Assembly: GCA_947589155.1 (NCBI GenBank) | Contig: CANQBH010000002.1 | Coordinates: 56,077 to 120,076 of the forward strand | DNA: 64,000 nucleotides | Reading direction: 5' to 3' | From: an uncultured Lachnospiraceae bacterium | GTDB taxonomy: Bacteria > Bacillota > Clostridia > Lachnospirales > Lachnospiraceae | Shown here: piece by piece, positions 9,986 through 59,490 of the stretch | Layout: each line of letters begins with the position of its first letter | Position numbering within the stretch: the first letter of the stretch is position 1 | Made by a program: the position numbers and the translations under genes | The notes under the pieces: generated by a model | Databases searched by the model: none | Seen by the model: the letters and a program-made list of their open reading frames with translations, nothing else | What the model was told of the DNA's origin: nothing

Positions 9986-10036
9986 CAGATAAAAATAGCA
10001 AGGAACAGTACAGGAGCAGACAAAGGAGAGGAGACA

Positions 10037-10912
10037 ATGGACGACGGCACAGGGTCGAATCAAAAGAAGGCGTCTCATAACCGCAAGCGCGGTTTTTGGA
10101 ACGTCTTCCGGAAGGACGACAACGGAGAAGCATTTGAAAGGGAACTCATCGAGATGGTTCAAAAAGGGCGCGAACAGGGCGTCCTTCTATCCAGCGAGGA
10201 GGCGATGATCCGCAACATCTTTTCGTTTGGGAACAAGAATGCAAAAGATATTATGATCCACCGAAAACAGATCGTCGCGCTGGACGGGGAACTGACGTTT
10301 CAGGAGGCGTTGGAATCCATGATCGAATCTTCGTATTCGCGTTATCCGGTCTTTTTGGAAGACGTCGATAATATCATCGGCGTATTACATATCAAAGACG
10401 CGCTGGCATTCGCAAGGAATACGGATGTGTACGAGCGGCGGCTGAAGGATTTTCCGGAGATCGTGCACGGGGTGGATTTTGTGCCGGAGACCCACAGCCT
10501 TACGACGCTTTTCGCAAGGATGCAGTCCAAGAAAATGCACTTAATGATCGTCGTGGACGAATACGGGCAGACCAGCGGACTTCTTTCCATGGAAAATATC
10601 CTTGAGGAGATCGTGGGCAACATTCAGGACGAACACGACGAGGACGAGACGTCGATCTCGCGCATTACAAAGGATTTTTACCGGATGGAAGGGAGCACGA
10701 CGCTGGAGGAAGCCTCCGAGGTGCTGCAGATCGCCTTTCCGGACGATTACGATACGTTAAACGGCTTCATCATCCATATGATCGACCGGATACCGGAAGA
10801 ACACGAAAAGTTTAAGGTCGAATATGAATCCTACATCTTTGAGGTGCAGGACGTGCTCGGCCGCATGATTCAGGAAGTCCATGTTTTTCACAAGATCGGC
10901 GGCGTATCTTGA
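10037..10912 (+). CDS. CBS-pair + CorC/HlyC domain protein (no N-terminal TM domain)
   Basis: YSRYPV, VVDEYGQTSG..S.ENILEEIVG.IQDEHD, YDTLNGF. Confidence 0.88.
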   Translation: MDDGTGSNQKKASHNRKRGFWNVFRKDDNGEAFERELIEMVQKGREQGVLLSSEEAMIRNIFSFGNKNAKDIMIHRKQIVALDGELTFQEALESMIESSYSRYPVFLEDVDNIIGVLHIKDALAFARNTDVYERRLKDFPEIVHGVDFVPETHSLTTLFARMQSKKMHLMIVVDEYGQTSGLLSMENILEEIVGNIQDEHDEDETSISRITKDFYRMEGSTTLEEASEVLQIAFPDDYDTLNGFIIHMIDRIPEEHEKFKVEYESYIFEVQDVLGRMIQEVHVFHKIGGVS

Positions 10913-14837: not shown

Positions 14838-14870
14838 GAAGTGCGATGACCATTAGAAAGGGTGCAGACC

Positions 14871-17474
14871 ATGGCAAATAAAAAAACGGGCAATACGGCG
14901 AAAAAAAAGTCCGCCCGCCCGCAAAAGACGACGCAAAAGAAAAACGTAACGGTGGAAGCGCAGGTTTGGGATAAAGCAAAGGTAGAATCGGTCAAAGAGA
15001 TCGCGCTCTGGCTGGCGCTGGCCGTTTGCGTACTGCTGTTTTTAAGCAATTTGGGGATCGGCGGCGTGATCGGCAACGCGGTCAGCGGCTTTTTCTTCGG
15101 GCTGTTCGGACTGCTGGCCTATCTTTTGCCGATCCTGTTACTGATCGGGACGTTTTTTGTCGTTTCCAACTGGGGCAACCGTATCGCGACGGTCAAATGT
15201 CTGGCGGGCGCGGCGTTCGTGATCTTTCTGGCCACGCTGCTGGAACTTTTCTCGCACGGCGCGCAGACGGTCGGCGCGCTGCGCGCGTTTTATGAAAGCA
15301 GGGAGACGCAGTCCGGCGGCGGGCTGCTCGGAGGCCTTCTGGCGTCCGGACTGGTCAGCGGGTTCGGCCTGATCGGCGCTTACGTCATTACGCTGATCCT
15401 TATGATCGTTTCCGTCATTCTGATCACGGAGCACGCGCTGTTTGCTTCCGCAGGCAGAAGACGCCGCGCGCGGCGCGAGACCGGTAGGGGGCGCGCGGAG
15501 GACGACCGGCAGGAGCGGCTGGAGAGGATCGACCGTGATAAGAGGGCGCAGCAGGCAGCTGCGGAGCAGAAGACCGAAACGCGCAGGCAGCGCAAGATCT
15601 CCGGCGTGGCGTTTGATACCGCGTTGGAAGAACCGCCGCTGTATGTCGACAAGCGGCAGGACGGCTTAAACGAAGTACATATGGATCCGTCGAAGGAAAT
15701 GCAGGTCAGGGACGTCAACCGCGTGCCGCTTTCGTCAAATACGAAGGGATCCGTACAAAAGATCGCGAAAACGGAAACCGCGCGCCATTTGTCGGAAGAA
15801 CCGGCGCAGCCTTTGCCGGCGCAGGAGAAAAGGCGGCCGCGTAAGACGGAGAGATCCGCCGAGGAGACGAAAAAAAGCGCCGAGGAAGTGGCGTCTTTCA
15901 TTGCGGAAAAGAAACCGCAAAGGCCGTCGGATCATCGTTTCCCGCCGGTGGGCCTTCTCAAGAAAAAGAAAGCGGGAAGCGGAAGCGGCAATAAAACCGA
16001 GTTGGACAAGACCGCGGACAAACTTGAACAGACCTTGCGCAATTTCGGGATCAACGTGACCGTGACGGACGTCACCTGCGGCCCGACGGTTACAAGATAC
16101 GAACTGCTTCCCGAGGTCGGCGTCAGAGTCAATCGGATCACGAATCTCGCGGACGACATCAAACTGAATCTGGCCGTTACGGATATCCGTATCGAAGCGC
16201 CGATCCCGGGCAAGGCCGCGGTCGGGATCGAAGTGCCGAACAAAGAAAAGGTCATGGTATCGTTAGAAGAAGTGATCTCGTCCAAAGAATTTGAATCGTC
16301 GGCTTCCAAGGTGACGTTTGGCGTAGGCATGGACATCGGCGGCAACGTCATCACGGCGGACATCGCCAAAATGCCGCATCTTTTGATCGCCGGTACGACG
16401 GGATCCGGAAAGTCCGTCTGTATCAATACGATCATCATGAGCATCCTCTATAAGGCGACGCCGGAGGAAGTGAAATTCATCATGATCGATCCAAAAGTCG
16501 TGGAACTGAGCATCTATAACGGGATCCCGCACCTGCTGATCCCGGTGGTCACGGATCCGAAAAAGGCGGCCGGAGCGCTGCACTGGGCCGTGACGGAAAT
16601 GGACGACCGGTATCAGAAATTCGCGGACGCCGGCGTGAGGGATATGAAAAGTTATAACCGCAGGCTTGAGGAAAAAGGCGGCGCAGCGGCGGATCCGCAG
16701 AAAGAGGGCGCGGCTGAAAAAATGCCGGAACTTGTCGTCATCGTGGACGAGTTGGCCGATTTGATGATGGTCGCCGCGAAAGAAGTCGAAGAATCCATCT
16801 GCCGTCTGGCGCAGAAAGCGAGAGCGGCGGGCATTTACCTGATCCTTGCCACGCAGCGTCCGTCCGTCGACGTCGTGACCGGACTGATCAAAGCGAATAT
16901 GCCGTCGAGGATCGCGTTTGCCGTCAACAGCGGCGTGGATTCCAGAACCATTTTAGATATGTTCGGCGCGGAAAAACTGCTTGGAAACGGCGATATGCTC
17001 TATTACCCGCAAAGCCTGACAAAACCGCTGCGGGTGCAGGGGGCGTTCGTATCGGATACCGAAGTCCAGCAGGTCGTCGATTACATCAGGGAGAACAACG
17101 GAAGCGTCGAATACAGCGAGCATATCACGCAGGCGATCGACAATAATGCAGAAAACGGGAACGCGGGCGCGGTCGCCATCGGCGGTGGCAGCGGATTTGA
17201 CGACAGCGTGGATTCCTATTTTGCGGAAGCCGGACGGCTTTTGGTCAGCAAGGAAAAGGGCTCGATCGGTATGCTGCAGCGCAGTTTTAAGATCGGCTTT
17301 AACAGGGCGGCGCGGATCATGGATCAGTTGGAAGAAGCCGGCGTCGTCGGGCCGGAACTGGGTACAAAACCGCGTACCGTCTTAATGAGCGCGGAGGAGT
17401 TTGAACGATACCTTGATCCCGACCGCGCTTCGGATATCGAAGAAGAATATCCCGTAGACGAAACATTGGAATAA
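14871..17474 (+). CDS. ftsK: DNA translocase FtsK/SpoIIIE
   Basis: N-terminal TM segments, PHLLIAGTTGSGKS, VDELADLMM, ATQRPS, gamma domain LQRSFKIGFNRAAR; start moved to ATG 14871 (RBS). Confidence 0.96.
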   Translation: MANKKTGNTAKKKSARPQKTTQKKNVTVEAQVWDKAKVESVKEIALWLALAVCVLLFLSNLGIGGVIGNAVSGFFFGLFGLLAYLLPILLLIGTFFVVSNWGNRIATVKCLAGAAFVIFLATLLELFSHGAQTVGALRAFYESRETQSGGGLLGGLLASGLVSGFGLIGAYVITLILMIVSVILITEHALFASAGRRRRARRETGRGRAEDDRQERLERIDRDKRAQQAAAEQKTETRRQRKISGVAFDTALEEPPLYVDKRQDGLNEVHMDPSKEMQVRDVNRVPLSSNTKGSVQKIAKTETARHLSEEPAQPLPAQEKRRPRKTERSAEETKKSAEEVASFIAEKKPQRPSDHRFPPVGLLKKKKAGSGSGNKTELDKTADKLEQTLRNFGINVTVTDVTCGPTVTRYELLPEVGVRVNRITNLADDIKLNLAVTDIRIEAPIPGKAAVGIEVPNKEKVMVSLEEVISSKEFESSASKVTFGVGMDIGGNVITADIAKMPHLLIAGTTGSGKSVCINTIIMSILYKATPEEVKFIMIDPKVVELSIYNGIPHLLIPVVTDPKKAAGALHWAVTEMDDRYQKFADAGVRDMKSYNRRLEEKGGAAADPQKEGAAEKMPELVVIVDELADLMMVAAKEVEESICRLAQKARAAGIYLILATQRPSVDVVTGLIKANMPSRIAFAVNSGVDSRTILDMFGAEKLLGNGDMLYYPQSLTKPLRVQGAFVSDTEVQQVVDYIRENNGSVEYSEHITQAIDNNAENGNAGAVAIGGGSGFDDSVDSYFAEAGRLLVSKEKGSIGMLQRSFKIGFNRAARIMDQLEEAGVVGPELGTKPRTVLMSAEEFERYLDPDRASDIEEEYPVDETLE

Positions 17475-54172: not shown

Positions 54173-54787
54173 TTAGAAAAAGCGGAAAACGCCAAAGACC
54201 ACGCCGAGGATCTGACAGTCCGGAACAAGGATCGGATCCATCGTGTCGTTTTCCGGCTGTAAACGGATGTGGTCGCTTTCTTTATAAAAGGTCTTGACGG
54301 TCGCGGAATCGTCCACGAGCGCCGCGACGATCTCACCGTTTCTGGCAGTGTCCTGCCGCTTTACCAGAATGATATCGCCATCGAGGATACCGGCGTTGAT
54401 CATGCTGTCGCCTTTGACTTTCAGCATGAAACTTTCCTGATTCGGCATATATTCGGAAGGGACGGGGAAGTAGTTGTCGATGTTCTGCACGGCGAGCAGC
54501 GGCTGTCCTGCGGCGATCGCGCCGACGACCGGTACGTTGACGACCTCGCGGCGGGTTAAGTTGAAGTTATCGTCAACTATTTCGATCGCCCTTGGCTTGG
54601 AAGGGTCGCGGCGGATATAACCGTTCTTTTCCAGCGTCTCAAGATGGGAATGGATCGACGAGGTGGACTTTAGATGAACGGCGTCGCAGAGTTCACGCAC
54701 CGTCGGAGGGTACCCTTTGTTCAGGATCTCCTGCTTCATATATTCAAGGATCTCGCGCTGCTTGTCTGAAATACGACCGTATGCCAT
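54173..54787 (-). CDS. lexA: SOS repressor LexA
   Basis: GYPPTVRE, AAG cleavage site, GDSM, TVK; start ATG 54787 after AAAGGAG. Confidence 0.97.
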   Translation of the reverse strand: MAYGRISDKQREILEYMKQEILNKGYPPTVRELCDAVHLKSTSSIHSHLETLEKNGYIRRDPSKPRAIEIVDDNFNLTRREVVNVPVVGAIAAGQPLLAVQNIDNYFPVPSEYMPNQESFMLKVKGDSMINAGILDGDIILVKRQDTARNGEIVAALVDDSATVKTFYKESDHIRLQPENDTMDPILVPDCQILGVVFGVFRFF

Positions 54788-54807
54788 AAAATCATTCACT
54801 CCTTTCA

Positions 54808-54937
54808 AAACATCTGTTCTGTTTCACAGTATAACATATGCCGCGCAAAAAAGCAAACATATATTCCGAAAATTTGTTCGATTTTTCTGTTGACAAACGT
54901 TTGTTCGCGCTGTATGATGATACCAGAACAAAAGTTC
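54808..54937. promoter_or_regulatory. Divergent lexA/yneA promoters with multiple SOS boxes
   Basis: GAAC-AAAA-GTTC (54926-37), AAAC-GTTT-GTTC (54895-906), GAAA-ATTT-GTTC (54868-79), AAAC-ATCT-GTTC (54808-19), weaker AAAC-ATAT-ATTC (54855-66); TTGACA-17-TATGAT (+, 54890-918); TTGCTT-17-TATACT (-, 54856-828). Confidence 0.88.
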
Positions 54938-54976
54938 GGTGTTGTTAAACAGACATGAGAAAGAGAGTGATCCGCT

Positions 54977-55372
54977 ATGGCTGAGAATCGGAATCATCAG
55001 AATCAAAGGAACAAAAGAAGGGGAGAAAAGCGCTGCGCGCGCAGAACCGTCCGCACGGTGCGGCTGGCGCTTCTGCTAGTCTGCCTGACGTCGCTTCTGG
55101 CGTCGTCCGTCTTTGTATTAAAAACACACGCAAGTCAGGAGGAACCGCACGATACCTATTATACCAGCGTCCTTGTGGAAGACGGCGATACGCTCTGGGA
55201 GATCGCGGAGCGTTACGGCGCGCAGGAGCCGGAGCAGAGGAGTGCGTTCATTGAAAAAGTGCGGGACCTGAATCATCTGGATGAAGACAGGATCCATGCG
55301 GGATGTTATCTTACGATCCCTTATGACGTACCTCTTGGCATGGGCGGGACAGAAGATGAGAAGCAAAACTAA
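54977..55372 (+). CDS. yneA: YneA-like SOS cell-division inhibitor (TM + LysM)
   Basis: TM then V.DGDTLWEIA...I..V..LN.L....I.AG..L.IP; divergent from lexA. Confidence 0.82.
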   Translation: MAENRNHQNQRNKRRGEKRCARRTVRTVRLALLLVCLTSLLASSVFVLKTHASQEEPHDTYYTSVLVEDGDTLWEIAERYGAQEPEQRSAFIEKVRDLNHLDEDRIHAGCYLTIPYDVPLGMGGTEDEKQN

Positions 55373-55468
55373 AACTGACTTTATCCTGTATCATGAGAAG
55401 CAAAGAAAAAATTGAACTTTATACTTGTAAAATGAGAAGCAGGGATAAATTGACTTTATACGGTAAAA
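55356..55468 (+). repeat. Three degenerate tandem repeats of 37-39 bp (ATGAGAAGCA...AAAYTGA(A)CTTTAT...GTA)
   Basis: ATGAGAAGCA at 55356, 55393 and 55432. Confidence 0.85.
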
Positions 55469-57910: not shown

Positions 57911-57946
57911 TATCTATCGGTTAAATATCTGTTTTTCCGAAAGATA
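57911..57946. other. Candidate dif (difSL-like) recombination site
   Basis: 15-bp inverted arms (12/15 complementary) around TATCTG; minus-strand reading ATCTTTCGGAAAAACAGATATTTAACCGATA resembles difSL; directly upstream of xerS-like gene. Confidence 0.7.
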
Positions 57947-57975
57947 TTGCCAATTTCCCGCAATTATGCTATCAT
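57947..57975 (+). promoter_or_regulatory. sigA promoter of the recombinase gene, abutting the dif-like site
   Basis: TTGCCA-17 nt-TATCAT with extended TG. Confidence 0.7.
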
Positions 57976-58023
57976 AAACAAGAAAACGCCAAAAAGGCGC
58001 TCTTTGAAAGGAAGTCCTCTTAG

Positions 58024-59094
58024 ATGGGAAAAGACTCTGCCTATTATAAAGACAAAGCAAAAATGCAAAAACTAAAACTGCGTGAACTGATCGGCGAATT
58101 GCCGGACTGCGCCGCCGATTATATTTACAGCAAGGAACTCGGCGCACAAAGCAGCACGCTGATTTCCTATGCCTATGACCTTTTGACGTTTTTCCGCTTT
58201 CTGCTTGAAAAAAACAGCGCTTTGCGCGGGAAAACCGTAAAAGACATCTCTCTTTCGACGCTGGATCAGATCCGGTCGGAAGACATCGTGGAATATCAGC
58301 GTTATCTTGAATTAAATATCGACGGGGAATACCATGAAAACGGAAAACGCGCAATCGCGCGGAAAATGTCGCCGCTGCGGGGTCTGTTCCAGTACCATTA
58401 CGAGCGGAAAAACATCAGCGAAAATCCGATGGTATTGGTCAAATTGCCGAAACTCAAGAAGGATAAAAACATCATCCGCATGAATAACTATGAGGTACAG
58501 GCGATCTTAGAAGCGATCGAGGCCGGAAACCCGTCAATGAGCGAACGCCAGCGCAAATACTGCCAAAAAACGCAGCGGCGCGATCTGGCGATCCTGACGC
58601 TGATGCTCGGCACCGGAATCCGCGTTTCGGAGTGCGCCGGACTCGATCTGACAGATGTTGATTTTCGAGTCAACTCAATGACGATCGTGCGGAAAGGCGG
58701 CGGTCAGGACGTCCTTTACTTTAGTCAGGAGATCCATGACGTTTTGGAGGACTATATCGATACGGAGCGCGCCGGAATCCAGCCGCGCGACGGCCACGAG
58801 GCCGCCCTGTTTTACTCATTGCAGGGAAAGCGGATCAGCGTCGATGCGATCGAAAACCTCGTAAAAAAATATGCGGCGATCTCCGTTCCAAACAAAAAGA
58901 TCACACCGCATAAGCTGCGCAGCACTTACGGGACCGCGCTGTACCGCGAAACCGGCGACATCCGTCTGGTCGCGGACGTCCTCGGGCACGAAAACATCAA
59001 TACGACGATCGATTATTACGCGGCCATGGAAGACGAACACAAACGGCAGGCCGCCAACGCCGTATCCTATAAAAAAGACACAACAAGCGATTAA
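58024..59094 (+). CDS. XerS-like tyrosine recombinase (356 aa)
   Basis: Complete catalytic set: RDLAI...GIRVSE, RKGG, TPHKLR, LGH, T..YY. Confidence 0.9.
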   Translation: MGKDSAYYKDKAKMQKLKLRELIGELPDCAADYIYSKELGAQSSTLISYAYDLLTFFRFLLEKNSALRGKTVKDISLSTLDQIRSEDIVEYQRYLELNIDGEYHENGKRAIARKMSPLRGLFQYHYERKNISENPMVLVKLPKLKKDKNIIRMNNYEVQAILEAIEAGNPSMSERQRKYCQKTQRRDLAILTLMLGTGIRVSECAGLDLTDVDFRVNSMTIVRKGGGQDVLYFSQEIHDVLEDYIDTERAGIQPRDGHEAALFYSLQGKRISVDAIENLVKKYAAISVPNKKITPHKLRSTYGTALYRETGDIRLVADVLGHENINTTIDYYAAMEDEHKRQAANAVSYKKDTTSD

Positions 59095-59097
59095 AGT

Positions 59098-59490
59098 TTA
59101 CAGATCTTTCGGATCAACCACGATTCCGTCCTGCCAGATCTTTTCCAAATTATAGAACAGCCGGTCTTCCTTGGAAAAAAGATGGACGATCACATCGCCG
59201 TAATCCATCAGGATCCATGTGGAAGAACGGTTCCCTTCGATCTGTGCGGCGTGGATCCCGTTCTGATACATGATACGGTCCACTTCGTCCTGCATGGCCA
59301 AAAGATGGTTCTGGTTATTTCCGTGCGAAACGATAAAATAATCCGCGATCAGGGAGACGTTATGGATATCAATGACGCGCACGTCTTCCGCTTTCTTTTC
59401 TTCCAGCGCGTGGCAGATCATTTTGACCGTCTCTCTTATCCCGTTTTCCGTTTGGTTTTGGATTTCTTCCCTGATTCCTTCCGTGTTCAT
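59098..59490 (-). CDS. rsfS: Ribosome silencing factor
   Basis: EKKAEDV.VIDI, WILMDYGDVIVHLF, FYNLEKIW. Confidence 0.94.
   Translation of the reverse strand: MNTEGIREEIQNQTENGIRETVKMICHALEEKKAEDVRVIDIHNVSLIADYFIVSHGNNQNHLLAMQDEVDRIMYQNGIHAAQIEGNRSSTWILMDYGDVIVHLFSKEDRLFYNLEKIWQDGIVVDPKDL

Follow-up and report, generated by a model that had tools for sequence, protein, structure and literature searches.

The 36-bp inverted repeat at positions 57911-57946 of the window very probably serves this Lachnospiraceae bacterium as its chromosomal dif, and the 356-aa tyrosine recombinase encoded beside it would be its single cognate Xer recombinase. The window is the whole 64,000-nucleotide stretch analysed here (G000:C2:56077-120076), and it comes from an assembly of 1.98 Mb in 55 contigs that is 84% complete. 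A chromosomal dif with a cognate resolvase had already been proposed in a first-pass annotation of this DNA. That reading is now supported by the position of the site at the replication terminus, by its conservation among relatives, by the lack of XerC and XerD, and by the kinship of the enzyme with XerS, the lone Xer recombinase of streptococci and lactococci.

The site and the recombinase gene behind it

The site lies on the forward strand (C2:113987-114022) and is backed by model match, uniqueness and genus alignment. Its sequence is TATCTATCGGTTAAA-TATCTG-TTTTTCCGAAAGATA, which gives a 15-6-15 architecture comprising a left arm (57911-57925), the central region TATCTG (57926-57931) and a right arm (57932-57946), with an 11-6-11 core at 57915-57942. 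As first described, 12 of the 15 arm positions are complementary, and the arms differ at 3/15. We see no second copy in the 1.98-Mb assembly, even when up to eight mismatches are allowed. A sequence-only site model was also constructed, trained on 17 sites of this type; in the source genome it gives 30.7 bits at the site and 12.5 bits at the next-best locus. The core pattern of canonical dif, ATAA-N6-TTATG, does not occur in the source genome. Across the genome, a looser pattern, CGNNAAA-N6-TTTNNCG, occurs no more often than the reversed pattern used as a control, and is informative only through its co-location with the recombinase gene.

The recombinase gene (58024..59094, forward strand) begins 77 bp beyond the end of the site and encodes a protein of 356 aa, referred to here as P0001, which was characterised from its open reading frame, profile matches, tree and alignment. 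The full catalytic set that had been claimed for it is present, with R186, K224, H296, R299, H322 and Y332 all invariant in 25 orthologues. A sigma-70-like promoter (57947..57975, forward strand) abuts the right arm of the site. It starts at 57947 with the -35 box TTGCCA, just as the first reading had it, and continues with a 17-nt spacer and an extended -10 box, TGcTATCAT. The trinucleotide TTG directly after the site, together with a TATAAT-like box at the same spacing, is found in 9/12 species of the genus. Between this promoter and the recombinase ribosome-binding site, the 5' leader contains a GC-rich hairpin of the GCGCC-loop-GGCGC type (57983-58003), which is not conserved in the genus alignment. 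Close homologues of P0001 are found in Lachnospiraceae, for example a protein from Konateibacter massiliensis with 74% identity, and existing annotations call such proteins only 'tyrosine-type recombinase/integrase' or 'XerD'.

The first-pass annotation noted no phage or ICE genes nearby, and the flanking genes have housekeeping roles. On the upstream side they encode LexA, a LysM protein, a 501-aa protein of no assigned function and an acyltransferase, and on the downstream side, where they are on the minus strand, RsfS, NadD-HD, Obg, L27, Prp and L21. The genes for LexA (minus strand) and the small LysM protein (plus strand) form a divergent pair adjoining the terminus (54173-55372), which resembles the Bacillus lexA-yneA SOS cell-division arrangement. 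Three tandem 37-bp units (55356-55468), whose consensus starts ATGAGAAGCA, are also seen 2.5 kb from the site, in the interval that separates the LysM (YneA-like) gene from the 501-aa open reading frame.

Position at the replication terminus and conservation among relatives

Cumulative GC skew along contig C2 rises over 114 kb, peaks at approximately 114,000 and then falls, and the site begins at 113,987. Gene orientation flips at 59094..59098 of the window, with the sign change in GC skew falling within approximately 1 kb. Before the flip, all genes except lexA are on the plus strand, and after it, as far as approximately 63.4 kb, they are on the minus strand. The skew switch coincides with the site not only in the source genome but also in G002, G030, G040 and G026. 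It lies within 2 kb of the orthologue in a second genome from the same genus (G002) and in a representative of another genus (G018). In G018 the orthologue is also opposite dnaA on a 2.29-Mb contig, and no significant site-model match is found at the skew switch. In a genome from another family (G030), the switch falls on a model-type site that is 11.9 kb away from the orthologue; a weaker second dif-like sequence occurs there, 31 bp before the main site (G030:C1:473825-473883, locus L279). For G040 and G026, both of which were outside model training, the best sequence-only matches are exactly at the skew switch, in the case of G040 at a distance of 52 kb from the orthologue. The model also gives a predicted site for G032, where GC skew is too weak to locate the switch. 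In three single-contig genomes from other Clostridia families, the orthologue-to-dnaA distance is 1.51 of 3.13 Mb (G231), 1.36 of 2.56 Mb (G234) and 1.28 of 2.45 Mb (G300), so the orthologue is roughly half a chromosome away from dnaA. In short, what we see in the source genome is a single copy at the replication terminus, as is expected of a dif.

In several relatives, the best dif-like match is found a few hundred bases from a contig end (G025:C43:413, G038:C28:94, G037:C63:239 and G013:C20:733), and it may be that fragmented assemblies tend to break at the terminus.

These positions bear on the possibility that the palindrome is no recombination site but serves solely as an operator for transcription of the recombinase gene, with either the recombinase or some other regulator binding to it. 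The site does abut the -35 box, and this site-promoter layout is kept in the genus. We nevertheless find an operator-only role very unlikely. An operator would be expected to remain beside its promoter, yet in G030 and G040 the same type of site is at the skew switch, at distances of 12 kb and 52 kb from the gene, respectively. The 6-bp spacer, which is invariant and asymmetric, and the likeness to difSL, the site used by XerS, are likewise characteristic of a crossover site. Acting as an operator and functioning as a dif can be compatible.

Conservation of the site was assessed by aligning the regions upstream of the orthologues. The gene was found in 12 species of the genus, and in all 12 a site is present 60-170 bp upstream of it; these species share an invariant core, CGG[A/T]TAAATATCTGTTT[T/A]TC[C/A]G, and an invariant spacer, TATCTG. 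The rest of the intergenic region is unalignable, which leaves the core as the sole conserved island beside proteins that are approximately 78% identical. Within the arms, positions 5-7 vary without keeping complementarity, and at position 12 one arm constantly has T where the other has A. Judged from the alignment, this pattern fits protein half-sites better than a selected hairpin. The inverted repeat folds as RNA with -12.1 kcal/mol (z-score -4.2), as might be noted in favour of an RNA hairpin such as a terminator of the upstream acyltransferase gene, but such folding is expected of any inverted repeat. There is no U-tract, an Rfam search of the site gave no match, and the species do not maintain complementarity at positions 5-7 and 12 of the stem, although the loop is invariant. 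That the repeat is such a hairpin, or a chance palindrome, is scarcely credible.

Related 15-6-15 sites are found near orthologues in other genera, families and orders, with the wider consensus (T)AACTATTCG-NN-AAA / N6 / TTT-NN-CGAATAGTT(A/G). There is some natural variety in their symmetry, with perfect 15/15 palindromes in G234 and G152, and asymmetric, difSL-like sites in G300, G221 and G326. The upstream-adjacent layout also occurs in several other orders, with G030 and G040 as exceptions. For four relatives that were not used in training (G015, G033, G034 and G039), the best genome-wide match falls within 7 kb of the gene. G020 has no orthologue, and a whole-genome search with the site model found no significant site there.

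Some relatives carry unusual arrangements. In G017, two dif-like sites in the same orientation (G017:C1:7346-7380 and 10012-10046, locus L278), 2.7 kb apart, flank the XerS-like gene, which could in principle be excised as a cassette. G015 has two XerS-like paralogues 3 kb apart (G015:C2:103225-104244 and 107064-108092), with the best dif-like match 3.6 kb upstream of the first. Three dif-like copies in G035 were at first read as a mobile element exploiting Xer. This reading was ruled out, as the 14.9-kb contig that they bound encodes glycolysis genes; the copies are either an intergenic sequence that is repeated or an effect of the assembly.

A mobile origin must also be weighed for the source genome, where the gene and site might together be an integration module or its remnant (an att site with its integrase), or an invertible DNA switch. 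A site beside its recombinase is the usual layout of such elements, and a mobile element as the source of XerS itself was a speculation of Le Bourgeois et al. (PMC1914069). Against this, there is no second copy of the site, all neighbouring genes are housekeeping genes, the terminus position is kept in a sample that covers the class, and the branching of the gene tree is broadly that of the taxonomy. Furthermore, the core site of the genus has no match among 2.9 million viral contigs. We consider a mobile element or switch extremely unlikely, and retain the interpretation of the site as a chromosomal dif.

The recombinase: kinship with XerS and the search for a partner

The best NCBIfam model for P0001 is XerS (NF003462, an equivalog model), which aligns end to end and scores 202.7 bits, below the equivalog cut-off of 267 bits. 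The NCBIfam XerC, XerA and XerD models score 146-158 bits on the same protein. As controls on the XerS model, streptococcal XerS proteins from named genomes give 523-562 bits and clostridial relatives give 152-189 bits. Pairwise identity between P0001 and XerS is approximately 28%. In phylogenetic analysis, a single clade unites the clostridial proteins with streptococcal XerS; it has SH-aLRT support of 99, support of 100/99 under the site-heterogeneous LG+C20 PMSF model, and support of 90 with wider sampling. The XerD-type proteins of Lachnospirales cluster with E. coli XerD, away from P0001. The tree thus supports a grouping of P0001 with XerS and not with XerC/XerD, although both stems are long and long-branch attraction may contribute.

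Sequence features shared by P0001 and XerS, and absent in XerC/D, comprise an N-terminal extension, two insertions in the N-domain, the RKGG motif and a 13-aa insertion before the catalytic arginine; two further insertions of streptococcal XerS are missing from P0001. The likeness to XerS that the first-pass annotation had proposed is upheld by the RKGG motif, the shared indels and the clade, but not by the curated XerS cut-off, which the protein fails to reach (203 vs 267 bits).

A profile built from the clostridial clade finds matches in 76 of 301 Clostridia genomes that were sampled evenly, and the scores of these matches fall into two tiers. The distant second tier (219-274 bits, 347-392 aa; loci L256-L263) is found in other Clostridia families. 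The site model detects no site within 4 kb of these second-tier genes, and their products probably have a different target. One XerS-like gene nested inside the clostridial clade is on a contig binned as 'uncultured Bacteroidaceae' (L129, CAZQGE010000035.1), which is probably a mis-binned Clostridia contig.

We see only one match to PF00589 in the source genome. As this assembly is 84% complete, a second recombinase could be missed, but closely related genomes speak against this: the XerD model, which also picks up XerC, finds no XerC/XerD-type gene in any of the 12 genus genomes, which include two with 99% completeness. In these genomes the best match to the model is the XerS-like protein itself, at approximately 140 bits. 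A canonical XerCD/dif system elsewhere would have spoken against the proposed function, and neither the genes nor the dif core were found in the source genome. The wider comparison covered 41 genomes (the source genome and 40 relatives), of which about 10 encode XerD-type proteins (approximately 300 aa, 312-360 bits). Where such a protein is encoded, the XerS-like enzyme may not be the only one at work.

It has to be considered, then, whether the enzyme and an unseen second recombinase form a heterotetramer, with one enzyme per arm as in XerC/XerD. The 3/15 difference between the arms, the constant T vs A at position 12, which could mark two specificities, and the XerD-type protein also encoded by about 10 relatives would all be in keeping with such a partnership. 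The absence of any XerC/XerD-type gene from the 12 genus genomes argues against it, and the perfectly palindromic arms in G234 and G152 fit a single binding specificity. Overall, a second recombinase at this site seems highly improbable, and the data favour P0001 as the only enzyme acting there.

Proposed mechanism and relation to known Xer systems

The XerS/difSL system offers the closest guide to how the site might work, and from it we infer a scheme for binding, cleavage positions, FtsK dependence and autoregulation. By this analogy, each arm would be bound by one recombinase monomer, with two per site. When a chromosome dimer is present, FtsK, translocating towards the terminus, would bring two sites together at the closing septum. 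Y332 would then exchange strands across the 6-bp TATCTG in two pairs, one after the other, and the dimer would be resolved into two monomers. A suitable translocase is encoded within the window: an FtsK/SpoIIIE DNA translocase of 870 aa (14862..17474, forward strand) with 4TM, alpha, motor and gamma domains, its gene 41 kb from the site. It is probable, judging from known systems, that FtsK both activates and positions recombination. No FtsK-orienting word stands out after the contigs are oriented by skew, where dozens of G-rich 7-/8-mers are >95% skewed. With regard to expression, recombinase bound at the right arm would occlude the -35 box. As this arm touches the box, the enzyme at dif probably lowers its own transcription, and the site would then probably mediate autoregulation.

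Taken more broadly, we lean towards a scenario in which XerS/difSL is a single branch of an ancient Xer system with one recombinase. This system would extend across the class Clostridia, where it would be present in about a quarter of sampled genomes and always at the terminus. The enzyme would be the sole dimer resolvase in lineages such as this genus and would repress its own promoter from dif, and the polarity of dif would be fixed relative to the replication arms and not to the gene. In full-text literature searches we found no paper on an XerS-type system in Lachnospiraceae or Clostridia, and the supplements of Kono 2011 and Garcia 2021 had no usable Lachnospiraceae data. Le Bourgeois 2007 presented XerS as a landmark acquisition marking where streptococci and lactococci part from other Firmicutes (PMC1914069). 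If our scenario is correct, a sister system widespread in Clostridia (76/301 genomes, and at the terminus where position was checked) alters that picture. It would also identify the dimer-resolution machinery of abundant gut Lachnospiraceae that are without XerCD, and would provide a precise terminus marker for fragmented metagenome assemblies. The series from symmetric to asymmetric sites would be natural material for studying how a single recombinase gains asymmetry of strand exchange.

In comparison with XerC/XerD-dif of E. coli, or CodV/RipX-dif of B. subtilis, the site has the same 11-6-11 core geometry, with inner arm ends that are rich in A/T, is likewise a single chromosomal copy at the terminus, and is accompanied by an FtsK-type translocase. 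Those systems differ in using two enzymes of approximately 300 aa whose genes are unlinked to dif, whereas here there is one enzyme of 356 aa. XerH/difH of Helicobacter and Campylobacter and XerA/dif of Archaea are similar in that they perform dimer resolution with a single recombinase on nearly palindromic sites, but they belong to other lineages. The bit scores of P0001 against solved chains are 74.5 for XerD, 65.4 for XerA and 33.8 for XerH, making XerH the most distant of the three. XerA works without FtsK (PMC5357621).

The strongest likeness is to XerS/difSL of Streptococcus and Lactococcus, the subject also of a further study, Nolivos 2010 (PMC2965235). The published L. lactis difSL is ATCTTTCCGAAAAACTGTAATTTTCTTGACA (PMC2965235). 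The version given in the first-pass annotation was one base off this sequence, but the minus-strand match still stands at 22/31 positions, with 13/14 in the first arm. The count of 22/31 is by itself not significant genome-wide, with one other place reaching 22 and two places reaching 21, and the second arm and central region differ; it gains weight only because of the adjoining XerS-like gene. Both systems have a lone recombinase of approximately 356 aa, with the gene at the terminus and the site adjoining it, immediately upstream in this genus. In both, the site overlaps or abuts the promoter, and autoregulation has already been proposed for difSL (PMC1914069). The proteins appear as sister clades with shared indels, an FtsK with a gamma domain is present, and one arm of the site, ATCTTTCGGAAAAA, is 13/14 identical to the high-affinity arm of difSL.

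There are also clear differences. The site described here is near-symmetric, with a 15-6-15 layout and a 6-bp spacer, whereas difSL is asymmetric, 31 bp long, and has a central region reported as 11 bp (PMC5357621). In this genome the difSL-like arm is the one nearer to the gene; the high-affinity arm of streptococci is on the side away from xerS, which starts approximately 50 bp beyond the other difSL arm. Both arm orientations are found among the clostridial relatives. Finally, the hosts of XerS/difSL are Bacilli, whereas the host here belongs to the Clostridia.
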